Made by a program: the position numbers and the translations under genes | The notes under the pieces: model-generated | The model's input: the letters and a program-made list of their open reading frames with translations, nothing else | Told to the model about the DNA's origin: nothing | Databases searched by the model: none | Part shown: positions 17,800 through 63,743 of the stretch, piece by piece | Numbering within the stretch: position 1 is the first letter of the stretch | Layout of the letters: the number at the start of each line of letters is the position of its first letter | Source of the DNA: Bacteroidota bacterium | Lineage (GTDB): Bacteria; Bacteroidota; Bacteroidia; AKYH767-A; OLB10 | Assembly: GCA_024643795.1 (NCBI GenBank) | Contig: JAHEMF010000009.1 | Coordinates: forward strand, 15,955 to 79,954 | Reading direction: 5' to 3' | Length of the DNA stretch: 64,000 nucleotides

Positions 17800-20700
17800 C
17801 TACTGATGTGTGAGTTTAGAGGAATAGGTCTTTTCTCCGTCCGTGATCTGAATCAAATAAATCCCGCTACTTAAGATCGATTGATCAAATGTAAGTTTAC
17901 ATGCTATGTCATTAGGGTTGAATAGCCGCTTGTAAATAACTTTGCCTGATAGCTCATATACACACACCGTTATTTCTCTGTTGATAAGGTTTCCAAATAC
18001 AACATTAAGCTCGTTTTTAAATGGATTTGGAAATACAAAACTCACCAGGTTTTGGTTTGAAATAGTCCTTTCAAGTAATATTGAACCTGAGTATTTATAA
18101 TCCCCATTCTGGTCTATCATCTTCAGTCTGTAATAGTAAGACCTATCACCTTCAACCATGTCAACATATTGATAATTATTGGGTTGTGAGCTAAATCCGG
18201 CGGCCTTTACCGCAGCTATCTTTGTATAATCAACCCCGTTGAGTGACCTTTGAAGCTCAAAACCTGAACTATTCACTTCCGTTAAAGTTAGCCATTCCAA
18301 CACATTTCCTTCATCAATTACTTCGCCAGTAAATGAAACCAGTTGAACAGGTAGCGGACCATTTGTAGCTCCGAGGATCTGGAAGTCGTCTATAGCAACC
18401 CCAACTCCTGTCACAAAGGCGTCACTTTTAAACCGTATCCTAAACCCTACATTTGGGTTGCCGGCTAAAAACGAAATGTCATATTCACATAATGAAAAAG
18501 ATGATCTTGTTCCATTAAAAAATGGTTGATTGAGTGGAAATGCTGTTGTGTTTGTAGTGTTTGCAAAATCATACCAGTTTGCAGAAACTATTCCTAGCGG
18601 TGTCCATAATTCTCCTTTATCAAGAGTGTATTCTACAGTCATTCCGTCCCAACTTATCTCAAAAGAATTTTTTCTGTAAAACCTGAGTGTATAAGTTCCG
18701 GGTTGTGATAAGTTATAGTTAGGTGACCACAGTCGTGTATCAGTATTGTTGGCATAATTTGAGGCGGTTAAACCTGTTACCCATGCCGTAGAACCGGAGC
18801 GTGTTCCATTTTTGCCACCTATTGATGAGTTTCCTTGCTCGAATGATGTGCCATATGTTGTTTCGGACCCAAAGTCAAGTGGATTTGCTTCAAAATTTCC
18901 GCCAGCAGGCAGGTCATAAGGAGTGCCTCGGTTAGGTAAAACATGAATATATGAGGTTTTGGTTCTTGTAAAGGCCCCTGAACCATTTATCTGCAATGTA
19001 ACCGTGTAAAGTCCCGGATTTGTATAAGTATGAGACGGATTTTGGGTGGCTGAAGTATTCCCATCACCAAAGTCCCAATTCCATGCAATTGCCTTGTATG
19101 ATACATCAGAAAATGCGATCAGTTTACCGGTATAAGCAATCTGTTTATCAGATACAAACTCTGCATAGGGGTCGGAGAAGACATCCGAAGAGAATAATCC
19201 GCGACCATGTGTTGCTGCAATAACTAGCTTATCTGAACTCCGGATCTGAAGCATGTCTGTTCTTACATTAGCCATACCGTTATTAGATGGCCCCCAAACT
19301 GTTGCGCCACCCATAAGGTTGTCTGTTGTCCACGTTCCTAACTCTGTTGCTAACATAGCCTGTGTCGCATCATTTGGATTAAACAACGCCCATCGCACAG
19401 GCATATCAGGTAAATTTCCTTCCACGGAAGTCCAGCTTGTGCCACCGTTGGTGGTTTCCCAAACACTGGTTACACCATAGTTAGAATATGTTACTAACAA
19501 GTGGTTATCATTACCGTCTTCAATTGCAATACATGAAACACTACCGGAAGGCATGCTGCCTCCTGTAATATCTGTACCTGATGGAGAGGCTGTGTGCGCA
19601 TTATCAACTCTTACTACACGTCCATTTGAAATCCCAAAGAACACCCTGTTATTTGTATTTGGAGAAACGGACACATGTGTTACACTACCTCCTCCAAATG
19701 CTGCAACATTACGGCTATTTAATGCATTTGACGCTGGTGCATTGGCAAGAATATAGTAGTTGCCTGAGCCATTACGCAAATACATATTGTTGTTAGCGTT
19801 ATCATAATCTGACGGGTTTACAAATGCCCCATTGTTGTTGTTAGTTATCCTCGTAAAAGTGGCTCCGCTATTTGTTGATCTGTAAATGTTACTATACACA
19901 TAAGAAGTGAATTGATACTGCGGCTGATCCTGATCTATGTGTGTGAAACAACCATCGCCACCTGTAACTTCTACAGTTGAGTTGATACCAAGTGTACTAT
20001 ATTTTTGAGAGCCATTATCCTGTGCTCCGGCAATGAATTCAGAAGAGTAGGCCACAGGGCTCATAGAGCAAGCATAATACTGAGTAACATTATAGTTCTG
20101 GCTCACATGGCCAATTGAAGGTATTGATGCGGTTCCATTAGAAGATCGGTATATTCCACCATCGTTACCGAAATATAAAATGCTTGAGTTGCCTGGCTCA
20201 AAGCAGATCTCATGCTGATCGGCATGTACCTCCTGAAACCCAAACCCTCCATACCAATGGCTTATCTGTTGCCACGACCCTGCACCATTGGTAGATTTGA
20301 AAAGGTCAACTCCGCCTGCATAAAGTACATTGGAGTTGTTAGGGTCTACCGCAGCAGTAAGATCGTACCAGGCCTGTCCTCTTGTGAAATCAGCACCTAT
20401 GCCTGGGTCAGCGTCTGTCGGATTGGAGCGGGTAGACCAGTTAGCTCCGCCGTCAGTAGACCTGTAAATTGCTGATATTCCGTAACCGGTTCCCTGTGCA
20501 AGTGCATATATAACATTAGCATTAGATGGCGCACAAGCAAGTTCGATACGGGTAAAGCCAGTAGTTGGAAACCCGTTAGTGCCGTTATTTAGCTTGGTCC
20601 ATGCGCCAGAATTTCCGGTTGCGGATTTATAAATCCCGTCTGTTTGAAACAACCCTAACGCTACGTATATACTATTATCGGCTCCTATTTCAAGGTCGCT

Positions 20701-21519
20701 GACTCTGTTGCTGGACGCTCCAGATCCGGTATTAAGTACAGCGCTCCATGTTGTGCCCCCGTTTGTTGACCTGAACAATCCATTACGTGTTCCGGCATAT
20801 ACATCACCAGTTACCGGATGAACTTTTATCCTTTGTATGTAATAATAGTTGCCTGACGATGCTGTTGCAGCAAGTTGTGACCACGTGATACCGCCATCGG
20901 TCGATTTCCATATACCATTCCCTCTTATCGCATCACCATTAAAAAACCCTTCACCTGTTCCAAAATACATTGTAAGAGGATTGGTAGGATCATGCGCAAT
21001 ACATGTGATCGCAAGGTTATTAAAAAGGTCGTCCACCGGTTGCCAGTTTGGCGGAGTGGCAGTTATGTCTGTTGTCTTCCATAGTCCTCCACCAACACCG
21101 GCCGACCATACTGTCTTAAAAGTTGGGTCATTCGGGTCAACCATTATAGCTCTTGTTCGCCCGCCAACATTGTTGGGACCACGCTCAAGCCAGGTAACTC
21201 CAGGTATGGCGCCCATGGCTTTTCCGATCGCAGATTGTTCCTGAAGGCTTCGGGTATATTGATATGCCTGAATCAGTCGTTCCTTAGGTACTTCCAGAGT
21301 AGCAGGGTCGCGTGTTAATTCGATCTCCTGAAGGATCGCAAGATCCATTCTATCACGTAATGGGATTTCACTCTCTCCTTCTTCCCTATCCAAGCTTTTC
21401 GCATCCTTCTTAAAATCAATGCCTTTGGATGACTGGGGAGCATAAAAATCGATAATACCTGTCATAAAAACAGATATAATCAAGGCTGAAAGTGATATGG
21501 AATATTTAGAGGTTTTCAA
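17800..21519 (-). CDS. Secreted BNR/Asp-box repeat protein with PKD domain and T9SS type-A C-terminal sorting domain
   Basis: Multiple S-x-D-x-G-x-T-W Asp-boxes (STDGGITWS, STNGGTTWS, STDGGANWS, TTNGGTSWTS). PKD-like DFGDGNTSATQNPSHTYTNPGLYTV. CTD FVFPNPFKNELNVVF...GIYLIQI. Apparent TTG start followed by a plausible signal peptide. Confidence 0.8.
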   Translation of the reverse strand: MKTSKYSISLSALIISVFMTGIIDFYAPQSSKGIDFKKDAKSLDREEGESEIPLRDRMDLAILQEIELTRDPATLEVPKERLIQAYQYTRSLQEQSAIGKAMGAIPGVTWLERGPNNVGGRTRAIMVDPNDPTFKTVWSAGVGGGLWKTTDITATPPNWQPVDDLFNNLAITCIAHDPTNPLTMYFGTGEGFFNGDAIRGNGIWKSTDGGITWSQLAATASSGNYYYIQRIKVHPVTGDVYAGTRNGLFRSTNGGTTWSAVLNTGSGASSNRVSDLEIGADNSIYVALGLFQTDGIYKSATGNSGAWTKLNNGTNGFPTTGFTRIELACAPSNANVIYALAQGTGYGISAIYRSTDGGANWSTRSNPTDADPGIGADFTRGQAWYDLTAAVDPNNSNVLYAGGVDLFKSTNGAGSWQQISHWYGGFGFQEVHADQHEICFEPGNSSILYFGNDGGIYRSSNGTASIPSIGHVSQNYNVTQYYACSMSPVAYSSEFIAGAQDNGSQKYSTLGINSTVEVTGGDGCFTHIDQDQPQYQFTSYVYSNIYRSTNSGATFTRITNNNNGAFVNPSDYDNANNNMYLRNGSGNYYILANAPASNALNSRNVAAFGGGSVTHVSVSPNTNNRVFFGISNGRVVRVDNAHTASPSGTDITGGSMPSGSVSCIAIEDGNDNHLLVTYSNYGVTSVWETTNGGTSWTSVEGNLPDMPVRWALFNPNDATQAMLATELGTWTTDNLMGGATVWGPSNNGMANVRTDMLQIRSSDKLVIAATHGRGLFSSDVFSDPYAEFVSDKQIAYTGKLIAFSDVSYKAIAWNWDFGDGNTSATQNPSHTYTNPGLYTVTLQINGSGAFTRTKTSYIHVLPNRGTPYDLPAGGNFEANPLDFGSETTYGTSFEQGNSSIGGKNGTRSGSTAWVTGLTASNYANNTDTRLWSPNYNLSQPGTYTLRFYRKNSFEISWDGMTVEYTLDKGELWTPLGIVSANWYDFANTTNTTAFPLNQPFFNGTRSSFSLCEYDISFLAGNPNVGFRIRFKSDAFVTGVGVAIDDFQILGATNGPLPVQLVSFTGEVIDEGNVLEWLTLTEVNSSGFELQRSLNGVDYTKIAAVKAAGFSSQPNNYQYVDMVEGDRSYYYRLKMIDQNGDYKYSGSILLERTISNQNLVSFVFPNPFKNELNVVFGNLINREITVCVYELSGKVIYKRLFNPNDIACKLTFDQSILSSGIYLIQITDGEKTYSSKLTHQ

Positions 21520-32322: not shown

Positions 32323-33579
32323 CTATTTGATTTTTAAAAACTTAGATTGAGAAATTTGACTCCCCGACTTTAATATGATATTGTAAAAACCAGGCTCCAA
32401 ACCAGAAATATCCAGAGTTACTGTTGACAACCCAGCACCTTTATTAACAAATTCATTTCTAACTACCTGTCCGGTTGATGAGCATATTATTACCTCAGCC
32501 GAAGGTTTGTCCAAGGCTGTGACAATATTAAGCTGGTCATATGTAGGGTTGGGGTATATTTTAATAAAAGGGATATTATTCGATGCATCATTCAATCCAG
32601 TGACCGAGACTAGTTCTTTGGCGAACTCAAACTCACCATTTGCAGAACCTCCGAATGCTGTGAACATCATCTTCCAGATCTGTCCTGACCTATCTTTTAC
32701 AAAGTAAATTGTAGAATCAGCCAAAACCCAAGAAAAACTACTTAGGTCGAAACTCTTCCAATCATAACCAATACCATTAATATTTCCGGAATAAGAGTTT
32801 GACCATGGGTTTGCAATTGAAAAATCAACAGGATATGCTTTTGCAACTTCCACACTATCGTTACTTAATACACCGGTAACCTTATAAATTATTGGAGTTA
32901 TAGCCAGGTATTGATGGAATACAAGATCCCAGTCTGTGCTTAAAGGTTCACGGTCAAGGGTGGTATTGTTGACAATGGAATAATAACCAAAATTTTTACC
33001 TGAAAATGAAGATTTATCCAATGTTGCAATAACTTCATTTGTACCATCTACGTTAGCATGTCTGAATGTGTATACATTACCCGCCAAAGACTCTATCCAA
33101 ATTTTTTTAACATCGCCAGTAGGCATTATCATGAAATAAATAGAATCGCCGGTCACAATTTGTGTATTTACATCATAAAACCCCCAGCCCTTATCATAAA
33201 CATTTGATGCATCAAGGCCATGGTTAAACGCACCAAACCACCATGTCGTGTCGCTGTTGTATAGCTCATAGTTGGTGTTAAATATACCCACAGTATCGAG
33301 TGAAATAATATTTGTCCAGTCAACAGAAGCAAACCCGGAGCTGAACAACCTGACGTTATTTTTAGAGTTGACCAATATTGAGGATTCGGCTCCGTTTATC
33401 TGAAATGCCATATCCCAGTTCAAATTATTTTCACTGCCGATCTCACCCATGGACATATTATAATATACCTGATCAGTATATCCGGCGCCTATTGACACAA
33501 TGTCAAAAACAGGTTGCGCTTTTGAGGATGTAATTACAATTAAAGAGAGTAGAATAGTAGTTTGATAAAGTTTTTTCAT
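32323..33579 (-). CDS. Hypothetical secreted protein with T9SS type-A C-terminal sorting domain
   Basis: Signal peptide. C-terminus IKIYPNPTYDQLNIV...GFYNIILKS. I recognise no catalytic motif. Confidence 0.7.
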   Translation of the reverse strand: MKKLYQTTILLSLIVITSSKAQPVFDIVSIGAGYTDQVYYNMSMGEIGSENNLNWDMAFQINGAESSILVNSKNNVRLFSSGFASVDWTNIISLDTVGIFNTNYELYNSDTTWWFGAFNHGLDASNVYDKGWGFYDVNTQIVTGDSIYFMIMPTGDVKKIWIESLAGNVYTFRHANVDGTNEVIATLDKSSFSGKNFGYYSIVNNTTLDREPLSTDWDLVFHQYLAITPIIYKVTGVLSNDSVEVAKAYPVDFSIANPWSNSYSGNINGIGYDWKSFDLSSFSWVLADSTIYFVKDRSGQIWKMMFTAFGGSANGEFEFAKELVSVTGLNDASNNIPFIKIYPNPTYDQLNIVTALDKPSAEVIICSSTGQVVRNEFVNKGAGLSTVTLDISGLEPGFYNIILKSGSQISQSKFLKIK

Positions 33580-37442: not shown

Positions 37443-38693
37443 TTACCGAACTATTTGTATCAGTTTCCCTGCCCTTTTCCCCGAGTCGTCTAAAAGGTGT
37501 ACCACATAACTTCCTTTAGAAATTTTTGATGGTATCAGAAAGTGCAGAAAGGCGGTATTATTATATGGCAGCTCATACACTATTCGTCCTGCCAGGTCTG
37601 AGATAATTACAACACCACTTTTATTGCCGGGCTGCAGTACAATATTTAAATAATCGCTGGCAGGGTTAGGGTAAACACGGATCTGTAATGAGTTCAGATC
37701 ATCAGAGATGCCCGACAGTAGTGACTCGTCGAGTCTTGCCAATCCACCCGTTTGCATACCAACCCATATAACACCTGCTGAATCTGATCTTATACATTGC
37801 ACAAAATTATCGGGCATCAAGGAGTTTTGAGTGTTATAAACAATAAAATTCAACCCTGACTTTTTAACCAACCCTGAATCTAGTGTGCCAGTCCAGATAC
37901 TACCATTACTTCCTGCCGTAATGCTTGTTGTGCTGTTTGATGGAATAGACGATGACAAAGTATTATATGTTAAGAAAGATACTCCTCCTAAGTGTGCTGA
38001 TATTCCCGATGCAGCGGTAGAGATCCATAGAATGTTTTGATCATCTCTTACAAGACCTAATAATGAATTATCAGGCAATGAAGAATTTGCCAACGTATAT
38101 TGAGACCAGTTAGAGCCATTTTTAAAACTAATTCCACCGTTTATGGTGCCTACCGTCAATATGTTTGTTATGGTGTCTACATTCAGCGAAGCTATGTTAC
38201 TGGAGCCGATAAGAGAATTTGATGCATCATAAAGAGTCCACACACCTGCGCTGTCAAGGCTAGCCAGGCCTCCGATAGTGCCTATCCAAACAGTTTTAGC
38301 CGTATCGACAGCCAGAGATTTTACATAATTATCAGGTAATAATGAATTGGATGTATTAAATACTGTCCAGGTAACTCCATCATACTTTGCCACTCCTCCA
38401 TTAAAAGTACCTACCCAAAGATTACCGGAATGATCACTAACCAATGCGCGTACTGAATTGTCAGGTATGCCAGAATTAAAAGTTTGGTAAACCACCCAGG
38501 CTTGGTCATCATATGACGCAAGCCCAAAGTCGGTACCGATCCATTTAACATTGTTTTCATCGATCAAAATTGCTCGCACAGAATTTTCAGGTAAAGGCGA
38601 GTTGATGTTATTGAAAATGGTCCATGCATTTTGAGCAATTGCCGGGCTCATAAACAAAACAAGAACAAAAAGATAGATGATTTTTTGCCTCAT
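37443..38693 (-). CDS. Two-component-regulator-propeller (Reg_prop) repeat protein with T9SS type-A CTD
   Basis: Repeats of the W.GT..GG.A.Y type. Signal peptide MRQKIIYLFVLVLFMSPAIAQ. C-terminus VYPNPASDYLNIVL...GSYVVHL. The track start at 38732 is a TTG. Confidence 0.7.
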   Translation of the reverse strand: MRQKIIYLFVLVLFMSPAIAQNAWTIFNNINSPLPENSVRAILIDENNVKWIGTDFGLASYDDQAWVVYQTFNSGIPDNSVRALVSDHSGNLWVGTFNGGVAKYDGVTWTVFNTSNSLLPDNYVKSLAVDTAKTVWIGTIGGLASLDSAGVWTLYDASNSLIGSSNIASLNVDTITNILTVGTINGGISFKNGSNWSQYTLANSSLPDNSLLGLVRDDQNILWISTAASGISAHLGGVSFLTYNTLSSSIPSNSTTSITAGSNGSIWTGTLDSGLVKKSGLNFIVYNTQNSLMPDNFVQCIRSDSAGVIWVGMQTGGLARLDESLLSGISDDLNSLQIRVYPNPASDYLNIVLQPGNKSGVVIISDLAGRIVYELPYNNTAFLHFLIPSKISKGSYVVHLLDDSGKRAGKLIQIVR

Positions 38694-38760
38694 GATACCT
38701 GACAAGATACAACTCCAATAAAGCCTTATCAATGACCGGGGTCATTTTTTCAAACAATGG

Positions 38761-41277
38761 TCACTTAAGGATCAAAGGAGCGTTGATAGAAGTTTTTCCG
38801 TTATGGATCCTTATAATATAATGTCCCCTGGCCAGTTCTTTTGTATCGAGCATAAGGTGATTGGCTGTGCTGTTGGCAGGTAATATGACTTTTTCGTGCA
38901 ATTGACCCAACAGGTCAAGCACCTCAATATTAACTACTTCATTTTCGTTCCACAGAAAATCAACTTCACAGGCATCTGTTGCTGGATTGGGATACACATT
39001 AATTTTCAGAGCATCATCAAATACAAATGCCTCCCTGCAGGAAATATCTACAAAGTATGAGTTTGACCCTCTGGCACATCCGTTGCTACTTGTTACTACA
39101 ACCTTATATTTTCCGGGATCATATGCTACATAATCAAGTCCTGTCTCACCCGGAATATCATTTGCATATTTTTTCCATTGGTAGGTAAGCCCGCTTCCCG
39201 AGTTTGCGGTGAATGTAACACTGTCTCCTACACAAATACTGGTTGGGCCATTTGCAGATATAATGGCGCTTGGAAGTGGCAGCACATTAACGGCAATTTT
39301 ATTTGAAGTTCTGGAACAACCAAATGGATCTGTGACAATGCAACGATATTTGCCATTGCCATATGCAAGATAACTTGCATTAGAAGCGCCATTAATAATA
39401 TTACCATATTTTTTCCATTGAAAATCGGTGCCAGTATCGGTGTTAACGCTCAATGTTACGTTATCTCCTTTGCAAATTGTAACCGGGCCGTTTGCACTAA
39501 CAGATGCTTTTGGAAGTTTATGAACATTTAAAGTTGCAGGAGTTCGGCTGCTGACACAAACTTGTCCTGACACCCCAATCTCCCAATCGTAAAAGAAATA
39601 ATAGAAATCTGTTCCGGCAGTTGAATTATGTATGGACAAATAGCCGGGAATTGTATAAGGATAATTTACACCACTATTGTTCCTATACAATGCAAATGTA
39701 TCAGCTCGAGTAATGGCATAGTTGGTTCCTGGCGAAAGGTACCAGTCAAGATTTACACGGCTTTCGCCGGATGGTACATTTACGGTAAGTGAGTCGGCAA
39801 TGACTCCTCCCGAATTGCGCAGCTCAACAGTCATGTCGCCTGCAGTTTGAGCAAATATTTTAACAGACTTTAATGTAAAGCCCGAAAGCACATCAAAAAT
39901 CAGACTTTGGCTGCTTGCAAAAAATGAACCAACGCCAATGCTATTATCAACAGGAAGACATTTGTTGATAAAAGGAGGGATGCTGTCAGTTACTTCAGCA
40001 TAGTAAGTAGTACTTGTATTCAAAAGAGGTGTTATTAGATCATTTCCTGTTGCGATCGGGCTACCTCCTGTAGCTATATCGTACCATTTAATTGATCCAC
40101 TCCCGCTAGCATGAAGTGTTCCAATGCCTTCAACACATACATGATCATCAGTGGTAATTGGCGCAGCACCAACCTCAGTAACCTGGAATGGTTGCGAAAT
40201 ACTGGAACCGCAGGCTGATGTAACAGATACTGTATACGTTCCCTGAGTGCTAACATTAATATTTTGTGTTGTTTCTCCTGTAGACCATTGGTATGAATAA
40301 TTGGGGCCATTTGGTGTTTCCAGGGTCATGCTGGTGCCAGAACAAAGAGATGAGATTCCGGATAGAGAACTAATATTTGCAGGAGGTGCACTTTCCTGCA
40401 GAGTGAGCGTATATGGTACGGCAATCACATTGTTGTTTTCATTTTCTTCTAAAAAATAATTGTGAGGGTCCAGCTCAACAACTATATAATAATCACCATT
40501 ACAAGTTCCGGGTGGAATGTCAATATACATGCCGGTAAGGCCCTGATAATAAATATCGGTGAACCCTGATGAGATTCCTTGTACTACCTGAGAACAGGAG
40601 TAAGCTCCACCCCCAAGCCCATAGTTTGGGAAACTGGAATTTGTAAGCACATTACCTAAGGAATCAACACAATGGCCGTTGTATCCCGAACATGTTCCAT
40701 AGTCCATAAGGCAGAATGCAAGTTTAGCGCCATTGCCAACAATTGGCCATGTAAGAGGATCAGGATTACTGGTTGCAGTGCGAAGGCTGAAGATGCCCCA
40801 ATCGTCAACGTGCATATGACCGTGAGAAGGATGATATGTCATGGAGCCTGCAGCTCTTTCGTAATATGACATAGCATTACCATTTTTATGGTAAACTCTC
40901 TGAACCAGGAGCTGTGTGGGCGGAAGCCCGGTGTTAGGACACGTAGCAGGAGCGGTCCCTGTTATGGTATCGGTTCCGCATATGTATTGTGTGGTTGTTC
41001 TCACTTCCAGCGGACCATGCCCAATGTTAGGTGTTGAAACAGAAATTCTGAGCTGACCATCATTCGCCCCATTTCCCGATTGGGAATATTCAATAACGCC
41101 GGCACTGCCATTTACCAGCAATGGCGGGCGGGCGGCAATGATATCTGGCAGAAGATCACAATCTGTGGTTGATGAAGACTCACAAACACACGAAGTGCCA
41201 TTTGATGTGGTACACTGAGCGGAAGCCATGTATGAGGTAACAGGCAACAGCAATCCCAGCAAGAGAAGTTTTTTCAT
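38761..41277 (-). CDS. Secreted lysyl-oxidase-like (LOX catalytic domain) protein with Cys-rich N-terminus, Ig-like repeats and T9SS type-A CTD
   Basis: Signal peptide MKKLLLLGLLLPVTSYMASAQ. The segment RVYHKNGN...YHPSHGHMHVDDWGIFSL...GAKLAFCLMDYGTC...QGISSGFTDIYYQGLTGMYIDIPPGTCNGDYYIVVELDP...ENENNNV lines up with the human LOX domain RVKNQG...[21 protein letters not shown]...GHKASFCLEDTSC...[38 protein letters not shown]...ESDYTNNV. Three Ig-like repeats follow. The CTD is VYPNPATDACEVDF...GHYIIRI. The track start at 41349 is a TTG. Confidence 0.75.
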   Translation of the reverse strand: MKKLLLLGLLLPVTSYMASAQCTTSNGTSCVCESSSTTDCDLLPDIIAARPPLLVNGSAGVIEYSQSGNGANDGQLRISVSTPNIGHGPLEVRTTTQYICGTDTITGTAPATCPNTGLPPTQLLVQRVYHKNGNAMSYYERAAGSMTYHPSHGHMHVDDWGIFSLRTATSNPDPLTWPIVGNGAKLAFCLMDYGTCSGYNGHCVDSLGNVLTNSSFPNYGLGGGAYSCSQVVQGISSGFTDIYYQGLTGMYIDIPPGTCNGDYYIVVELDPHNYFLEENENNNVIAVPYTLTLQESAPPANISSLSGISSLCSGTSMTLETPNGPNYSYQWSTGETTQNINVSTQGTYTVSVTSACGSSISQPFQVTEVGAAPITTDDHVCVEGIGTLHASGSGSIKWYDIATGGSPIATGNDLITPLLNTSTTYYAEVTDSIPPFINKCLPVDNSIGVGSFFASSQSLIFDVLSGFTLKSVKIFAQTAGDMTVELRNSGGVIADSLTVNVPSGESRVNLDWYLSPGTNYAITRADTFALYRNNSGVNYPYTIPGYLSIHNSTAGTDFYYFFYDWEIGVSGQVCVSSRTPATLNVHKLPKASVSANGPVTICKGDNVTLSVNTDTGTDFQWKKYGNIINGASNASYLAYGNGKYRCIVTDPFGCSRTSNKIAVNVLPLPSAIISANGPTSICVGDSVTFTANSGSGLTYQWKKYANDIPGETGLDYVAYDPGKYKVVVTSSNGCARGSNSYFVDISCREAFVFDDALKINVYPNPATDACEVDFLWNENEVVNIEVLDLLGQLHEKVILPANSTANHLMLDTKELARGHYIIRIHNGKTSINAPLILK

Positions 41278-41383
41278 ATAGATTAATACCCGGATATTGA
41301 ATATGAAAGGTAGCACATAATGCTGTCCGAGACAATTTTTTTCCGCCAACAGGCGTTTTTTTTTGGTGATGGTGGGCTGAGAC

Positions 41384-42550
41384 TCAATGTTTTAAAAGGG
41401 CCCCCAACTCCTTTTCAAATGATCTTACGAACTCAGTGTAGGCCTCACCTGTAGCGGGCCCACTGAATCCTGCATGTACTTTGTGTACCCGATGATCCCT
41501 TGAAAGGACAATTGTGGTTGGGAATGCCAGGAAATTATGGATCTGAGGCATTACCTCTTTTAGACGCGATCTATTGGTTGCTACCAGAACAGGATACTGG
41601 ATAGAAAATCTGCTTTTTAATCTTTCAACATTTGATGCAGCACGGTTAAAGTCGTCTGTTTTTTCAAAGGCAAGACCAACCACCTGCAATCCTGAATCCT
41701 TGAACTTCGCATAGAGTTCATTGAGATATTTTGATTCATCCAGACAATTCGGACACCAAGTACCCAGAATTTGAACAATGACAATTTTGTTTAAAAATAA
41801 ACTGTCTTTCAGGCTTACCAGCGTACTGTCTGTATTTGGAAATTCAAAATTAAATATTGGGTCAGCCGTAATCACAGAAGTTATAGAATCCGGATTGGCA
41901 ATTTCAAACGTAAGGTCATAGTACCCATTCCATATTTTTTTATTTCCCCATCCTGAACAATAAATGCCGGTTAATTTATTTTCTTGTACAGAAGCTTTGA
42001 ACAGATATATGAATGTTCCGTCAAAGCCTGATAAATAAAGGCTGTCGTCCTTAACCACGCCACTCAAATATCTGTAGTCGCCACTGGGGTGTAAAAATGT
42101 TCCATTAATAATTTGCCTTCTTTGTTCAAATACTCCAATTGCATTTGGCGAATCTTCTTCACCAAGAGTTACGGCGTAACGAGATCGTATTTGTGCAACC
42201 TTTTGATTTGCACTTTTTTGAGAAGGGTATTTTTCAGAGACTCCGAAAACAGCATTGAAAGGCATTGTGTTATTTTCGGTGCGGGTATGATTAATAAATA
42301 CTCCCGAAAGAGTTTTATGGTCAGTTATAGCAGCACGTAATTCAGTTTCATAAACAGGGAACTGCATGATTACAGAATCCTGCTCTACGGAAACATTTTC
42401 CATTTTTATAACCTCTTCACCATTGATCAATTCAATGGTATATGTATCATGATCGAGCGTAACATTGAAATTGAAAGGCAACTCATCCCCGCAAGGAAGT
42501 GACAAAACGGCCCTCCATAGACCCGTGGAAATTATGATCGCGTTTAGCAT
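41384..42550 (-). CDS. TlpA/AhpC-like thiol-disulfide oxidoreductase with N-terminal domain of unknown function
   Basis: WCPNC CxxC motif in a thioredoxin fold (ILGTWCPNCLDESKYL). An N-terminal domain of about 250 aa, uncharacterised, precedes it. Confidence 0.8.
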   Translation of the reverse strand: MLNAIIISTGLWRAVLSLPCGDELPFNFNVTLDHDTYTIELINGEEVIKMENVSVEQDSVIMQFPVYETELRAAITDHKTLSGVFINHTRTENNTMPFNAVFGVSEKYPSQKSANQKVAQIRSRYAVTLGEEDSPNAIGVFEQRRQIINGTFLHPSGDYRYLSGVVKDDSLYLSGFDGTFIYLFKASVQENKLTGIYCSGWGNKKIWNGYYDLTFEIANPDSITSVITADPIFNFEFPNTDSTLVSLKDSLFLNKIVIVQILGTWCPNCLDESKYLNELYAKFKDSGLQVVGLAFEKTDDFNRAASNVERLKSRFSIQYPVLVATNRSRLKEVMPQIHNFLAFPTTIVLSRDHRVHKVHAGFSGPATGEAYTEFVRSFEKELGALLKH

Positions 42551-57184: not shown

Positions 57185-59344
57185 ATGAACCTATTCTTTA
57201 CCCGTGTTTTAGGAATTGCAGCTGTATCCATACTCATGTTGCAAATACCCGGTTATACTCAAACTGCAGCAGAGCTGACCAACGATTGGTGTGTAACACA
57301 TGAAATGTATGAACAGCAACTTAATATTAATCCCGAACTAAGAGCTAAAGTTGAGCAGTGGGAAAAGGAGGGGCAGGAAAACATGAACAAAGTGCTCAAC
57401 AATAAGAGTACGCAGAGCACGCAAAAAGGCAGCTCGGTTGTGAAGATCATTCCTGTAGTGTTTCATGTTATTCACGAAGGCGGTCCAGAAAATATTTCAA
57501 GAGCACAGCTTGAGAATCAGATAGACATATTAAATGCCGATTTCAGAAGATTGAATGCCGACACATCTGCTACACCTGCTGTGTTCAAGCCACTAAGTGG
57601 AGATACTGAAGTTGAATTTAAAATAGCTACTCTCGATCCTAATGGAAATTGTACCGATGGAGTTGTGAGGGTTTACTCCTCGTTAACCAACAGTGCCAGT
57701 CCACGTGATCTTGTCAAAGGCTTGAGTTACTGGCCAAGCAATAAGTATCTCAATATCTGGATCGTTAAATCTATCGCTCCATCATCAGGAACAGTTGGAA
57801 TTGTAGCGGGTTACGCACAGTTTCCCGGAATAGGTTCAACAACAACTGACGGGGTCGTGTTCCGTCATGACTTCACAGGCGCTATTGGCACTGCAAATGC
57901 TTCAAATGCAGGCAGAACAGCAACACATGAAGTAGGTCATTGGCTGGGACTTTATCATATATGGGGTGACGATGGCACTGCGTGTACAGGTTCAGATCAG
58001 GTTTCTGATACACCAAATCAGGCTGGACCAAATCAGACCACCTGCCCCTCATGGCCAAAAATATCTTGTAGTAACGGTCCCAATGGTGAGATGTTCACGA
58101 ACTATATGGACTATACCCGTGGCAACTGCCAAAACATGTTTTCGGTAGGGCAATCAAACAGAATGAATGCAGTTCTCAACGGCTCATTTGGAGGACTTGC
58201 AGCAGGTCGGCCGAATTTGTATACACCTGCAAATCTTATAGCCACCGGTACAGATCCCGGATCAACACCAACACTTTGTGCTCCGGTAGCGGCATTTAAT
58301 TTTCAAAATCAAACTATTTGTGAAGGCACCAGCTTAACTTTTACTGATGGTTCATGGAACGGCACACCTGATACCTGGAGCTGGAGTTTCCCGGGAGGAA
58401 CACCTTCAACTTCTAGCGACCAAAATCCATTTATAACCTATAACACTCCCGGGGTATATGATGTTACTCTTACTGTATCAAACGTCGCAGGTAGTGATAC
58501 TTACACGGCTACCGGAATCATCAAAGTTGAACCTGCTGTTGGCTCTTACGGAATCCCTTTTGCCGAAAGCTTTGAGAACATTGCATTTCCCGGGACAGAT
58601 TGGCAGATCGAGAATGAAAACGGTAATACCTGGGAGCAAAATACACTAGCAGCTAAAACAGGAGCTAATTCTATTTACATAAATAATTATTCGGGAAATC
58701 CCCCGGGAACGGATGTATTCATCACTCCGGCGTATAATCTCTCATGGTCCACAGCTCATTCGCTGACCTTTGAACTTGCATTTGCAATTCGTTCAACATC
58801 GTCAACCGATCAGTTGAAAGTGTATGCTTCTACAACATGCGGACAAATTTGGAACATCAGATATACTAAAGCCGGCGCAAGTCTTGCCACAGCAGGTTTA
58901 GTATCACAACCATTCTTTCCAACAGCGGGTCAGTGGGCTACACAATCAGCCAGCATTTCTTCTTCATCATACAACAACAAGCCGAATGTTCGTTTCAAAT
59001 TTGAATACACTCAAAATTCCGGTAACAATATTTTCATTGATGATATAAATATTGACGGCACAGTTGGCATTGACGAATCATTTGCCGAATCACTAAACCT
59101 GAATGTGTATCCGAACCCGGCACAGTCTGTTGCTACAGTAAGTTTTAATCTGGAAGGATCACACAAGGTATATATCGATGTTATTGATGTGATGGGAAAA
59201 GTGGTTAACAAGATCACGGAAATGGAACTCAATGCAGGAGAATATCAATTTGAACTCCCGGCGAATCTGGCCAACGGATTGTACAGCGTTCGTTTGTTTA
59301 TCGATGGTCGCTCTACCTCTAAGAATATTCTTATTAACCAATAA
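57185..59344 (+). CDS. M43-family (cytophagalysin/pappalysin-like) zinc metalloprotease with PKD-like domain, beta-sandwich domain and T9SS type-A CTD - paralog 1
   Basis: Signal peptide plus propeptide. HEVGHWLGLYHIWGDD (HExxHxxGxxH) and Met-turn NYMDY. C-terminus LNVYPNPAQSVATVSF...GLYSVRLF. Confidence 0.8.
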   Translation: MNLFFTRVLGIAAVSILMLQIPGYTQTAAELTNDWCVTHEMYEQQLNINPELRAKVEQWEKEGQENMNKVLNNKSTQSTQKGSSVVKIIPVVFHVIHEGGPENISRAQLENQIDILNADFRRLNADTSATPAVFKPLSGDTEVEFKIATLDPNGNCTDGVVRVYSSLTNSASPRDLVKGLSYWPSNKYLNIWIVKSIAPSSGTVGIVAGYAQFPGIGSTTTDGVVFRHDFTGAIGTANASNAGRTATHEVGHWLGLYHIWGDDGTACTGSDQVSDTPNQAGPNQTTCPSWPKISCSNGPNGEMFTNYMDYTRGNCQNMFSVGQSNRMNAVLNGSFGGLAAGRPNLYTPANLIATGTDPGSTPTLCAPVAAFNFQNQTICEGTSLTFTDGSWNGTPDTWSWSFPGGTPSTSSDQNPFITYNTPGVYDVTLTVSNVAGSDTYTATGIIKVEPAVGSYGIPFAESFENIAFPGTDWQIENENGNTWEQNTLAAKTGANSIYINNYSGNPPGTDVFITPAYNLSWSTAHSLTFELAFAIRSTSSTDQLKVYASTTCGQIWNIRYTKAGASLATAGLVSQPFFPTAGQWATQSASISSSSYNNKPNVRFKFEYTQNSGNNIFIDDINIDGTVGIDESFAESLNLNVYPNPAQSVATVSFNLEGSHKVYIDVIDVMGKVVNKITEMELNAGEYQFELPANLANGLYSVRLFIDGRSTSKNILINQ

Positions 59345-59431
59345 TTCATAAAAAGCTGTAGTATCAGATCGCTATCAGCTTTATAAATGTTTAAACCTAT
59401 CAGCCTATGTACAGCTGATGAATTTACTTGC

Positions 59432-61564
59432 ATGAAAAAATCTACTTACCTGTTTACAGTTTTTATTTCATTAACAATATTACTGCTTGTAAATAATTCT
59501 CTTGCACAAACTTCAGGCGTAGAAAAGGTTTGCGGATCAACGGAATATTTTGATCAAATGTCAAAGGCCGATCCTGATTTTGTGAGAAACCTGCAGACCC
59601 TTGAAGATGAAACAGCAAAGCATGTAGGCCATTATTTGGAACAAAGAAAACTCAGGGCCGGGCAAAAAAGCAGTGGCTCAGCTATAAAGACTATACCGGT
59701 TGTGTTCCATATTATTCATTACGGGGGTGTTGAGAATATTTCAAAAGCCCAGATCCTTAGTAGTATGGAAGTTTTGAATGAGGGTTTCAGAAAGCAGAAT
59801 GCAGATACAGTAAATATTCCTGGCGTGTTTAAACCGCTCGCTGCCGACAGTGAAATAGAATTCAAACTGGCAACACTTGATCCTAACGGTAACTGTACGG
59901 ATGGCATTGTACGTATTTTCTCTGCATTGACATATGGAGGTAGCAACAACCTTAAGGGTCTTAATTATTGGCCGAGTGACCAATATTTAAATGTATGGGT
60001 AGCCAACTCTCCTATCTCAGCGGGCTCAGGTAATCCTGTTGCCGGATATGCTCAGTTTCCTGGAGGTAATCCACTTACTGATGGCATAGTGATGGCGTAT
60101 GATTATGTAGGAACAGTTGGAAATGTAAATGTGGCAAGCGCAGGACGGACCATAGTTCACGAAGTTGGACACTGGTTAAACCTGCGACATATATGGGGAG
60201 ACGATAGCGGGGCATGTACAGGAACTGATTTTGTTAATGATACACCTAACCAAGGAGATAATAATTTAGGCTCTTGCCCAACATGGCCAAAGATATCTTG
60301 CAACAATGGGCCTAATGGAGAGATGTTCTCAAATTATATGGACTACACAACAGGCACCTGCAGGCTTATGTTCTCTCTCGGACAGTCTGCTCGTATGGAC
60401 GCAGCACTGAATTCTTCGGTGAGTGGAAGAGATAACTTGTGGTCCGCATCTAATTTGATTGCTACAGGTACTGATCCCGGAGCAATCAGTTCATTGTGTG
60501 CGCCTGTTGCTGCTTTTAATGACCAAAGTCAACTAGTATGTGAAGGAGCCACACTTATTTTCAAAGATGGCTCATGGAATGGTGATGTAGCATCCTGGTC
60601 ATGGAGTTTTCCGGGGGGAACACCTGCAACTTCTACAGACTCTATTGTTTCTGTGACATATAACACTGCCGGTGTATACGACGTTACACTCACCGCAACA
60701 AATGCATCAGGATCTGATACATATACCGCTAATGGAATCATTACGGTTGTACCTGCCATAGGACAAAATGGGATTCCATATTCTGAGAGTTTTGAAAACA
60801 TAACTTTTCCCGGATCAGAATGGACCATAGAAAATGAATTTGGTAATACCTGGGAACAGAACACACTGGCAGCGAAGAGCGGAAGCAACTCTGTTTACAT
60901 CAACAACTTTTCCGGAAACCCTCCGGGTACAGATGTCTTCATCACCCCATCTTACAATTTATCCTGGTCAACATCGCACTCCATGACGTTTGAGCTGGCA
61001 TTCGCAATTCGTTCAACATCTTCAACCGACCAGTTAAGGGTTTATGCATCTACAACCTGTGGACAGATTTGGAATATAAGATATACAAAAGCCGGGCAAA
61101 ATCTGGCTACAGCCGGACTGGTTTCTCAGGCATTCTTCCCGGGTTCAAATGACTGGGCTACCCAATCAGTGAGTATCTCATCATCATCTTATAATAACAA
61201 ACCCAATGTCCGTTTCAAATTTGAATACACTCAGAATTCAGGGAACAATATCTTTATTGATGATATTAACATCAACGGGACTGTGGGAATTGATGAAGCA
61301 TTTGCTGAATCATTGGATATGAATGTATATCCAAATCCTGCACAAGCGGTTGCAACTGTCAGTTTCAATCTCGAAAGCTCCCATAAAGTATATATAGATG
61401 TTGTGGATGTGATGGGAAGAGTGGTGAATCAGATCACCGAGGTAGAACTTAATGCAGGGGAATATCAATTCGAACTTCCCGGCAACCTTGCTAACGGCTT
61501 GTATAATGTAAGATTATTCATCGATGGCAATTCTGTCTCAAAGAAGATATTGATCAATAATTAA
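59432..61564 (+). CDS. M43-family zinc metalloprotease with T9SS CTD - paralog 2
   Basis: HEVGHWLNLRHIWGDD; NYMDY. The C-terminal 270 aa or so are about 90% identical to paralog 1 by eye. The ATG follows a 15-codon upstream extension in the track. Confidence 0.8.
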   Translation: MKKSTYLFTVFISLTILLLVNNSLAQTSGVEKVCGSTEYFDQMSKADPDFVRNLQTLEDETAKHVGHYLEQRKLRAGQKSSGSAIKTIPVVFHIIHYGGVENISKAQILSSMEVLNEGFRKQNADTVNIPGVFKPLAADSEIEFKLATLDPNGNCTDGIVRIFSALTYGGSNNLKGLNYWPSDQYLNVWVANSPISAGSGNPVAGYAQFPGGNPLTDGIVMAYDYVGTVGNVNVASAGRTIVHEVGHWLNLRHIWGDDSGACTGTDFVNDTPNQGDNNLGSCPTWPKISCNNGPNGEMFSNYMDYTTGTCRLMFSLGQSARMDAALNSSVSGRDNLWSASNLIATGTDPGAISSLCAPVAAFNDQSQLVCEGATLIFKDGSWNGDVASWSWSFPGGTPATSTDSIVSVTYNTAGVYDVTLTATNASGSDTYTANGIITVVPAIGQNGIPYSESFENITFPGSEWTIENEFGNTWEQNTLAAKSGSNSVYINNFSGNPPGTDVFITPSYNLSWSTSHSMTFELAFAIRSTSSTDQLRVYASTTCGQIWNIRYTKAGQNLATAGLVSQAFFPGSNDWATQSVSISSSSYNNKPNVRFKFEYTQNSGNNIFIDDININGTVGIDEAFAESLDMNVYPNPAQAVATVSFNLESSHKVYIDVVDVMGRVVNQITEVELNAGEYQFELPGNLANGLYNVRLFIDGNSVSKKILINN

Positions 61565-61616
61565 TATCCGGATTTAAGGTGCCTAAATCTTTGATTCGGA
61601 ATAAATAGCAAGTTGT

Positions 61617-63743
61617 ATGAGAATAAGTCTACGAGCAATTGTTGAAGTAATTTTTGTTTCAACGCTGATGATGCCCGGTCGTTTGTTTGCACAGGAAATA
61701 TTGCCATGCGGAACATCTGAGAACCACGCAATACTTTTACAGTCCGACCCTCAATTCAGTGAAAATCAGAAGCAGCTTGAAGAATTTACCAACGCACATG
61801 TTGAACAATATTTAACAGACCGTTTACAAAGAGGGTCTCAAAAAGGAAGTGCATCGGTAGTAAAAACTATTCCTGTGGTATTTCATATCATCCATTACGG
61901 AGGGCTTGAAAATATTTCAAAAGCACAGGTACAAAGTGCAATAGATGTGTTAAATGAGGATTTCAGACGCCTCAACTCAGATACGGCGAATACACCCCCG
62001 GCATTTAAGGCAATTGGAGCGGATACTGAGATAGAATTCAAGCTCGCAACACTTGATCCAAATGGTAATTGTACCGATGGAATAGTAAGGGTTTATTCGG
62101 CTTTAACTTATGCAGGCAACAATACAGTTAAACCTCTCAGCTATTGGCCGAATGATATGTACCTGAATGTTTGGGTTGTTGATCAGGCATATCCGTCACC
62201 TAATGATCCAAGAGTTGGATACTCACAATTTCCGGGAGGTAATCCACTTACCGATGGAATAGTAATGTCACACGATTATACTGGAAGAATCGGAACGGCG
62301 GCAAATGGCGAACTGGGCAGATGGATATGCCATGAGGCCGGTCACTCATTCAACTTAAGACATATCTGGGGAGATGCAAATTGTGGTAACGACTTTGTTT
62401 CTGACACTCCTCCGGCAGAAGGATCTCACAGCGGATGCGGCGCTTACCCGTACCATGTGAACTTGTGTGGCGCAGGCAGCAGCCCTGATGGAGAGATGAA
62501 TACCAATTATATGGACTATTCATCAGGAGGATGCCTGAATATCTTTACACTGGGCCAGTCAGCCCGCATGGATGCTGCGTTAAATTCTACTATCAGCGGA
62601 AGGGATAACTTGTGGAGCCCATCAAATCTCACTGCTACCGGAACAGCACCGGGAACACCTCCTTCTGTTTGTGCACCTGTTGCAGCTTTCGCGGATAAAA
62701 ACAGAATTGTTTGCGAGGGAAGTGTGGTTCAGTTTTTTGACGGCTCATACAATTCAGATACTATAAGCTACAGCTGGAGTTTCCCGGGTGGAACACCGGC
62801 AACATCCACAGACAAGGATCCGGTAATTACCTATAATACTACCGGTACTTATGATGTAATTTTAACAGTTTCAAATGCTTTTGGAAACGACACTTATACC
62901 GCAACAGGTATCATTGAGGTTTTGCCCGCAAACGGCCAATACAATGTTCCTTATTGGGAAAGTTTTGAGAATATCACCTTCCCGGGCACAGAATGGCTGA
63001 TTGAAAATGATGGAGGTAACACATGGGAGCAAACCAGTTTGTCGGCCAGAACAGGAACCAATTCTATTTATATAAATAATTACAGTGGAAACCCTCCGGG
63101 GCAAGATGTGTTTATTACACCCACTTACGACCTGTCAGGAACATCTCAAAATTATTTGACTTTTGAACTGGCTTTTGCCATCAGGACCACAGCATCAACA
63201 GACCAATTAAGAGTGTTTGCTTCCACAACGTGCGGCCAATTATGGAATATAAGATATAACAAATCAGGGGCATCACTTTCTACTGCAGGAATCATTTCAT
63301 CACCATTTTTCCCAAATGGGAATCAATGGGCATATCAATCGGTTAATATTGCTTCGTCATCGTATAACAATAAACCCAATGTGAGATTCAAGTTTGAATA
63401 CACACAGCAGTCGGGCAATAATATTTTTATCGATGACATTAATTTGCATAGCCCTGTGGGGATTGAAGATGTTGGTTCAAACGTGAAGGATCTTGAGGTT
63501 TACCCTAATCCCGTACAAACTTTTGCGACTGTAGAGTTTACACTTGATGAGCCTTGTCAGGTATATATTGATGTTGTGGATGTAATGGGGAAAGTAGTTA
63601 ATAAGATTTCAGAAACGCGATTGGATGCAGGGGAATATCAATTTGAATTACCAATGGAACTTCCTGCAGGATTATATAATGTGAGAATATTTACAGACGG
63701 CAAATCTGTATCTAAGAAGATAATTGTAACAGATAATAATTAA
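61617..63743 (+). CDS. M43-family zinc metalloprotease with T9SS CTD - paralog 3 (most diverged)
   Basis: HEAGHSFNLRHIWGD; NYMDY. The Cys pattern around the active site differs (GDANCGNDF...GCGAYPYHVNLCGAG). CTD LEVYPNPVQTFATVEF. Confidence 0.8.
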   Translation: MRISLRAIVEVIFVSTLMMPGRLFAQEILPCGTSENHAILLQSDPQFSENQKQLEEFTNAHVEQYLTDRLQRGSQKGSASVVKTIPVVFHIIHYGGLENISKAQVQSAIDVLNEDFRRLNSDTANTPPAFKAIGADTEIEFKLATLDPNGNCTDGIVRVYSALTYAGNNTVKPLSYWPNDMYLNVWVVDQAYPSPNDPRVGYSQFPGGNPLTDGIVMSHDYTGRIGTAANGELGRWICHEAGHSFNLRHIWGDANCGNDFVSDTPPAEGSHSGCGAYPYHVNLCGAGSSPDGEMNTNYMDYSSGGCLNIFTLGQSARMDAALNSTISGRDNLWSPSNLTATGTAPGTPPSVCAPVAAFADKNRIVCEGSVVQFFDGSYNSDTISYSWSFPGGTPATSTDKDPVITYNTTGTYDVILTVSNAFGNDTYTATGIIEVLPANGQYNVPYWESFENITFPGTEWLIENDGGNTWEQTSLSARTGTNSIYINNYSGNPPGQDVFITPTYDLSGTSQNYLTFELAFAIRTTASTDQLRVFASTTCGQLWNIRYNKSGASLSTAGIISSPFFPNGNQWAYQSVNIASSSYNNKPNVRFKFEYTQQSGNNIFIDDINLHSPVGIEDVGSNVKDLEVYPNPVQTFATVEFTLDEPCQVYIDVVDVMGKVVNKISETRLDAGEYQFELPMELPAGLYNVRIFTDGKSVSKKIIVTDNN

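Follow-up and report, generated by a model that had tools for sequence, protein, structure and literature searches.

A predicted type IX-secreted lysyl oxidase with an N-terminal catalytic head and a recurrent beta-propeller neighbour in Bacteroidota

The gene at 38761..41277 on the minus strand of a 64-kb window of Bacteroidota DNA (64,000 nucleotides of contig JAHEMF010000009.1, assembly GCA_024643795.1) was analysed; the window denotes this whole stretch and all positions refer to it. The gene encodes a protein of 838 amino acids (aa) with a lysyl oxidase (LOX) catalytic domain at its N-terminal end, a stalk of immunoglobulin (Ig)-like and jelly-roll modules and a C-terminal sorting domain (CTD) of the type IX secretion system (T9SS). 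From its sequence, the product is probably a member of the lysyl oxidase family, a copper/quinone amine oxidase that the T9SS delivers to the outside of the cell. A sequence-only reading of the window had placed a 'eukaryotic-type' LOX catalytic domain at 40410-41060, an interval that falls within the open reading frame (ORF) 38761..41349 (minus strand). The ATG at 41277 was taken as the start codon, a sensible choice that gives the 838-aa product. The exact product is already present at NCBI, on an 84.8-kb contig and without a product name. The gene and the features of its N-terminal part are as follows.

38761..41277, minus strand: whole gene, T9SS cargo of 838 aa with signal peptide, LOX head, Ig-like/jelly-roll stalk and CTD (ORF list, Pfam and NCBIfam)
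41218..41277, minus strand: Sec signal peptide, residues 1-20, MKKLLLLGLLLPVTSYMASA followed by Q (sequence inspection; junction kept in homologs)
40384..41217, minus strand: lysyl oxidase catalytic domain, residues 21-298 (278 residues)
41158..41217, minus strand: clade-specific N-terminal Cys cap, residues 21-40 (C22, C30, C32 and C40), before the conserved DLLPD motif
40810..40833, minus strand: copper-binding His cluster H149-x2-H152-x-H154-x-H156 (aligned to LOXL2 H623/H626/H628/H630)
40723..40725, minus strand: K185, predicted lysine of the lysyl-tyrosylquinone (LTQ) cofactor (LOXL2 K653; alignment)
40597..40689, minus strand: clade-specific insertion, residues ~197-227, that separates the LTQ Lys from the LTQ Tyr and contains C203 and FPNYGLGGG (gaps in the hhalign and HMMER alignments)
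40549..40551, minus strand: Y243, predicted LTQ tyrosine (LOXL2 Y689; alignment)

The protein matches Pfam PF01186 (Lysyl_oxidase) with 26.7 bits (gathering score 20.4, E = 5e-6), so that the profile search proposed as a check in the sequence-only reading gave a significant score. 101 homologous proteins were gathered and an alignment (A1) was built from 26 sequences. The A1 profile retrieves human LOXL2 (PDB entry 5ZE3) with E = 6.6e-10, and the resulting alignment is collinear across the His cluster, the Lys, the Tyr and the C-terminal E..NN motif. The LOXL2 catalytic-domain sequence used was checked against 5ZE3 (228 of 229 residues identical). Alignment of A1 to this domain with hhalign gave a probability of 97.6% and E = 2.7e-12, and BLASTP of the window domain against it gave E = 6.6e-8 over 202 residues. 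For residues 21-298, AlphaFold2 gave a confident model (pLDDT 85.4, pTM 0.84). PF01186 was matched by all 39 full-length homologs examined (best E = 1e-11). The LOX fold assignment of residues 21-298 is secure; the above-threshold Pfam score, the profile alignments to LOXL2 and the catalytic residues described below confirm that a LOX catalytic domain is present in a T9SS protein.

LOXL2 residues were numbered as the 5ZE3 chain index + 317, which reproduces H626/H628/H630, K653 and Y689. Following the LOXL2 structure paper, we take these His residues to be the copper ligands and the Lys and Tyr to be those of the LTQ cofactor. Residue roles in LOXL2 and LOX were also taken from PMC4448552. In the window domain, H152, H154 and H156 correspond to the copper ligands H626, H628 and H630, and H149 to H623, the first His of the 'copper talon'. 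K185 and Y243 correspond to the LTQ residues K653 and Y689, C189 and C228 to the disulfide partners C657 and C673, and D192 to the conserved D660. Conservation was assessed over 84 homologous domains from the 79 genomic loci described below and the window, with pairwise identities down to 49%. H149, H152, H154, H156, K185, C189, D192 and Y243 are each conserved in 84/84. The copper His cluster and the cofactor Lys and Tyr named in the sequence-only reading are therefore in place, and all four of the motifs that it quoted were found in the translation. Ten cysteines are invariant across the 84 domains, including all four of the Cys cap. Invariance of the catalytic residues in domains that diverge to 49% identity implies that purifying selection would be acting on catalysis in this clade.

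The Cys cap (modelled at pLDDT 92-95, model residues 1-20) and the insertion between the cofactor Lys and Tyr are both absent from the simple prokaryotic LOXs in A1. K185 and Y243 lie 58 residues apart, compared with 36 for K653 and Y689 of LOXL2, a difference of 22. Within the insertion, N218, G222 and G223 are invariant in alignment A2, and the FPNYGLGGG stretch is invariant in the clade.

The N-terminus consists, by inspection, of MKK, a hydrophobic core and ASA-Q, with Gln21 as the predicted mature N-terminus, and the LOX head starts directly after the signal peptide, without a propeptide. The '...AQ-C(T/S)T' junction recurs in nearly all homologs. Gln is the predicted mature N-terminal residue in nearly all family members (the Gln21 codon of the window lies at 41215..41217). 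In Bacteroidota, an N-terminal Gln exposed by signal peptidase I is cyclized to pyroglutamate (the 'Q-rule'), and the mature N-terminal Gln of the LOX family fits this rule. The CTD, of type A, matches PF18962 with 46.8 bits (cut-off 27) and TIGR04183 with 42.4 bits (cut-off 23) over residues 761-838. Residues 299-371, 590-668 and 669-750 form one family of Ig-like/PKD repeats. Inspection and the Pfam and NCBIfam matches thus bear out the signal peptide, Ig-like repeats and T9SS CTD described in the sequence-only reading. The stalk and the sorting domain are made up as follows.

40165..40383, minus strand: Ig-like repeat A, residues 299-371 (weak PKD-like Pfam match; 35% identity to repeat D)
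39988..40164, minus strand: Ig_7 (CHU_C-associated Ig-like) domain, residues 372-430 (PF19081, E = 4.7e-19)
39553..39987, minus strand: jelly-roll beta-sandwich module, residues ~431-575, with a fold like those of PHR domains and carbohydrate-binding modules (CBMs)
39274..39510, minus strand: Ig-like repeat C, residues 590-668 (48% identity to repeat D; weak Ig_2 match)
39028..39273, minus strand: Ig-like/PKD repeat D, residues 669-750 (PF00801 PKD, 30.4 bits)
38764..38997, minus strand: T9SS type A CTD, residues 761-838 (scores as above)

The jelly-roll module, for which no Pfam match was found, has a binding-type fold. The jelly roll seems to be inserted into the Ig_7 domain or fused with it (39553..40164, minus strand): the Ig_7 match reaches only position 65 of the 84-position profile, and the jelly roll starts exactly there. 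The Ig fold may be completed by the final strands of the jelly-roll model (CVSSRTPATLNV).

A T9SS CTD is present on seven ORFs of the window, which is unusually rich in T9SS cargo (17800..21519, 32323..33579, 37443..38732 and 38761..41277 on the minus strand and 57185..63743 on the plus strand). The cargo includes a 1239-aa Sortilin/Vps10-like-PKD protein and an HmuY-like protein. Three tandem paralogs of 719, 725 and 708 aa, each an M43 (pappalysin-type) metalloprotease with PKD and T9SS CTD, lie at 57185..63743 (plus strand).

The family was searched for with phmmer in 1.84 billion cluster representatives, which gave 147 matches at E <= 1e-30, 647 at E <= 1e-10 and 2111 at E <= 1e-3. In a locus scan of one genome per species with the single LOX domain as query, 79 loci were found, essentially all in metagenome-assembled genomes (MAGs) of uncultured Bacteroidia, Flavobacteriales and Chitinophagales, several of which hold multiple loci. 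The earlier description of bacterial LOX homologs as patchily distributed is misleading for the Bacteroidota lineage, given these loci and the 647 representatives at E <= 1e-10. ORF extraction at the loci yielded 85 LOX genes with lengths of 460-1520 aa, almost all with the '...AQ-CTTTNATSC' junction and CTD-like C-termini. Por_Secre_tail (T9SS CTD) was matched by 33 of the 39 full-length homologs, the stalks of which are made of Ig_7, PKD_6, P_proprotein, fn3 or SprB repeats. Homologs without a type A match showed neither a type B domain nor any other recognized sorting domain. Some members of the clade are named 'lysyl oxidase family protein' by NCBI.

Tandem LOX duplicates are present in loci L010, L011, L012, L015, L016 and L031; no second LOX copy was found within the window. 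Dispersed paralogs, at three loci each, were observed in the single MAGs HJW.49 (L001/L002/L019), samp_487_concoct_766 (L004/L008/L029) and samp_4448_semibin_214 (L003/L013/L025). Among paralogs of one genome the LOX heads are conserved and the stalks differ (680-1400 aa). A second Bacteroidota layout, P_proprotein (PF01483)-LOX-PKD-CTD of ~610 aa, was seen in P0183, P0226 (L080-L082), P0076 and P0095. Loci L026, L028, L046 and L048 share another conserved C-terminus, ...D(W/G/H)I(V/I)E..D.S..EN.....(F/Y).(L/M/Q)(K/R)P, and lack any recognized T9SS domain of type A or B; L046 and L048 have the LOX domain in an internal position, from residue ~720 onwards. Three MAG records titled 'Bifidobacterium' (L047, L057 and L059) hold a T9SS LOX locus of the Bacteroidota type in which the conserved neighbourhood is complete, and these labels are almost certainly wrong. 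Giant proteins of 1600-3350 aa (P0192, P0223, P0224, P0225, P0229, P0236, P0237 and P0241), among the weakest phmmer matches, have 12-23 repeats whose match to LOX is confined to the CARDB-like C-terminal part (domain residues ~166-278), a hint that the C-terminal sandwich of LOX and CARDB-type repeats are evolutionarily linked.

Two neighbours of the LOX gene were considered in the window.

37443..38693, minus strand: downstream partner, a Reg_prop beta-propeller of ~416 aa with its own T9SS CTD (Pfam; orthologs in 38 loci)
41384..42550, minus strand: upstream TlpA-like redoxin of 388 aa with a WCPNC motif (Pfam Redoxin/AhpC-TSA)

The gene order PMT_2/TPR protein, small hypothetical protein, TlpA-like redoxin, LOX and Reg_prop beta-propeller with CTD recurs in many loci and is followed by LUD and M28 genes on the opposite strand. 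In the window, the propeller gene starts 67 nt past the LOX stop codon on the same strand, and no terminator-like hairpin was found in the spacer. A sigma-70 promoter scan performed no better than on shuffled sequences, and such a scan is ill-suited to Bacteroidota promoters. Full-length propeller orthologs (~410 aa, PF07494 Reg_prop, 33-49% identity over end-to-end alignments) immediately follow LOX, on the same strand, in 38 loci (L002-L005, L011, L012, L014-L016, L018, L021, L035-L039, L044, L047, L049, L050, L052, L053, L055, L057-L063, L065, L071-L077 and L079), and in L069 and L078 the propeller adjoins LOX on the upstream side. The propeller is the most persistent neighbour of LOX. It is kept beside the most divergent LOX homologs (L071-L077, ~55% LOX identity) with gaps of 0-9 nt where all other synteny is lost, which suggests that the two proteins are functionally coupled and that the arrangement is not a matter of mere relatedness. 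The pairing is not universal among T9SS LOXs, since the P-domain subfamily has no propeller neighbour; the dispersed paralogs are also without one, and their downstream genes vary (AAA ATPase, M43 protease, cytochrome-c-like). An M43-CTD gene similar to those of the window lies directly downstream of dispersed paralogs in L019, L025, L029 and L030.

The redoxin gene ends 106 nt before the LOX start in the window. Of 72 evaluable loci, 34 have it as the immediate upstream neighbour of LOX; these are mostly closer relatives, and the link is weaker than that of the propeller. The redoxin protein has a C-terminal TlpA-like thioredoxin domain and an N-terminal part of ~220 aa without assignment. 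It could help with the disulfides or the copper of the Cys-rich LOX head.

In the mechanism proposed here, the protein would be exported to the periplasm by the Sec pathway and cleaved before Gln21. It would fold in the periplasm with about five disulfides and bind Cu(II) there through H152/H154/H156, and Y243 and K185 would be converted autocatalytically into the LTQ cofactor. Following passage through the T9SS translocon and removal of the CTD, it would either be released or stay anchored to the cell surface, the LOX head then forming the far end of the stalk. The extracellular enzyme would oxidize primary amines to aldehydes, with production of H2O2 and NH3. The most likely substrates would be protein lysine side chains or other amine-bearing polymers bound by the stalk modules, and the enzyme would probably work with the co-transcribed, co-secreted beta-propeller protein. 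Judged from the domain composition, the layout favours macromolecular targets. Activity in a prokaryotic LOX has a precedent in the refolded Haloterrigena turkmenica enzyme (HTU-LOX), which is Cu-dependent, sensitive to beta-aminopropionitrile (BAPN) and oxidizes Lys-containing peptides and many amines (PMC6452851).

Several points weigh against an active extracellular LOX of this kind. The PF01186 match is weak and partial: of 204 profile positions it spans just 128-190, the half that contains the Tyr. A single-sequence phmmer search of the domain against the PDB sequences missed LOXL2 and returned chance matches only (E > 0.3), so that a profile was needed. The 22-residue insertion between the cofactor Lys and Tyr could mean that the active site is altered. 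One of the two LOXL2 disulfides of the aligned region is kept (C189/C228 for C657/C673), with C685 aligned to Phe by hhalign; C196 probably pairs instead with the clade-specific C203, and the number of disulfides differs among LOXs in published alignments. The propeller partner has no invariant lysine, and no collagen-like (G-X-Y)n ORFs or strikingly Lys-rich secreted proteins were found near LOX in the window and the 79 loci. The PF01186 match also overlaps a CARDB match near threshold in the window protein, as would be seen if the head were a non-catalytic LOX-like or CARDB-like beta-sandwich for adhesion only and the Pfam match came from a shared CARDB-like 'E..E.NN' segment; beside the selection on catalysis implied by the 84 domains, we consider this very unlikely. 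An appreciable, though minor, chance is given to an active enzyme with a job other than protein cross-linking, which would oxidize small amines, either free or attached to polymers (lysine, polyamines, cationic peptides or aminoglycosides), for nitrogen scavenging, detoxification of cationic antimicrobials or production of H2O2 as a weapon. Marinomonas LodA, a secreted lysine epsilon-oxidase, would be a functional parallel. The lack of a collagen-like or Lys-rich substrate gene nearby counts in favour of such a role, the neighbourhood is rich in secreted proteases (M43 x3, M28) that fit a protein- and amine-scavenging lifestyle, and the only characterized prokaryotic LOX has a relaxed specificity that includes glycine, taurine, aminoglycosides and polymyxin (PMC6452851). 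The long Ig-like stalk, the binding-type jelly roll and the co-secreted propeller, however, point to a macromolecular or particulate target, and paralogs with varied stalks suggest diversification of targets. A more specific form of the T9SS-delivered oxidase, in which the LOX head-on-stalk and the propeller make up a two-protein extracellular covalent cross-linking or adhesion system, is speculative and rather unlikely. Target recognition (of matrix glycans, particles or prey surfaces, for example) would fall to the propeller and jelly roll, and the LOX head would turn nearby lysines into aldehydes, locking the cell, matrix or floc to the target. If true, bacteria would have an equivalent of the matrix cross-linking of animals, with paralogs bearing different stalks for different targets. 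The cross-linking role put forward in the sequence-only reading is itself speculation.

The term 'eukaryotic-type' in the sequence-only reading would imply recent horizontal acquisition of the domain from a eukaryote. The full four-His 'copper talon' H-x2-H-x-H-x-H is present in the window domain, in line with such an origin, and its first His was described as missing from bacterial LOX by Grau-Bove et al. (PMC4448552); simple prokaryotic LOXs, e.g. P0096, nevertheless carry this His too. The other evidence argues against recent acquisition. The simple prokaryotic LOXs P0096-P0101 (~265 aa) score ~70 bits with PF01186 and 58-66 bits against LOXL2, compared with 26.7 and 41 bits for the window domain. 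The GC content of the gene (0.40-0.43) is inside the range of the window, with no compositional anomaly. There are hundreds of Bacteroidia homologs with paralog expansion, and the synteny is conserved in a neighbourhood shared by many MAGs. Recent import from a eukaryote is thus extremely improbable and the term is unsupported. Because the window domain is further from animal LOX than the simple prokaryotic LOXs are, we infer that the LOX clade, essentially only Bacteroidota in these scans, is a divergent bacterial branch.

The domain belongs to a known family already annotated in databases. LOX in Bacteroidetes was reported in 2015, with all but three prokaryotic LOXs being single-domain (PMC4448552). 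The text of the supplements to that paper contains no Bacteroidetes, Flavobacter-, Cytophag-, Sphingobacter- or Chitinophag- names, and its Bacteroidetes and multi-domain LOXs were not identifiable there. Literature searches linking LOX with T9SS found no such paper, which agrees with the remark in the sequence-only reading that no LOX was known to it as T9SS cargo. The previously undescribed features are the head-on-stalk layout of the T9SS protein, with no propeptide, the clade-specific insertions, the PHR/CBM-like jelly roll, the family size and paralogy and the conserved propeller partner. The function of prokaryotic LOX is an open question, called 'enigmatic' and 'cryptic' (PMC6452851). 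The clade gives functional clues that simple LOXs do not, namely predicted T9SS export, a propeptide-free head, a binding-type stalk, paralogs and a persistent partner, and these make concrete experiments on the targets of bacterial LOX possible. The hosts are abundant uncultured Bacteroidia that live in activated sludge and fresh water, and in such habitats covalent cross-linking of the matrix, scavenging of amines and production of H2O2 would each have ecological relevance. In biotechnology, a robust LOX secreted by bacteria could find use in protein cross-linking.

Compared with LOXL2 (5ZE3) and the animal LOX/LOXL proteins, to which the window domain is ~21-23% identical, the catalytic domain is N-terminal and not C-terminal, and SRCR domains are absent. 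The extra 20-residue Cys cap and the 22-residue Lys-Tyr insertion distinguish it from LOXL2, the C663-C685 disulfide of which is not conserved, as do T9SS export and the Ig/PKD/jelly-roll accessory domains. An inhibitory propeptide is present in animal LOX and HTU-LOX, whereas the window protein has none. The simple prokaryotic LOXs (Streptomyces, deltaproteobacteria and HTU-LOX) are PF01186 members that share the conserved His, Lys and Tyr with the window domain and, by their PF01186 scores, are nearer to animal LOX; P0096-P0101 are 30-35% identical to it. They are single-domain proteins of ~260-270 aa, some with a transmembrane segment or an autoinhibitory N-terminal stretch, whereas the window protein is a multi-domain T9SS cargo of 838 aa whose family has expanded into paralogs and has a conserved partner gene. 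The P-domain subfamily (P0226, L080) shares its phylum, its LOX clade (35-48% identity) and the presence of a T9SS CTD with the window protein, but a proprotein-convertase P-domain of ~175 aa precedes LOX, the stalk is shorter and the beta-propeller neighbour is lacking. LodA and GoxA are secreted marine quinoprotein amino-acid oxidases with a protein-derived quinone that act on lysine amino groups and release H2O2. Their fold is unrelated to LOX, their cofactor is cysteine tryptophylquinone and a partner flavoprotein is needed for its biogenesis; no sequence relationship to them was seen, and they offer a possible functional analogy with the window protein.

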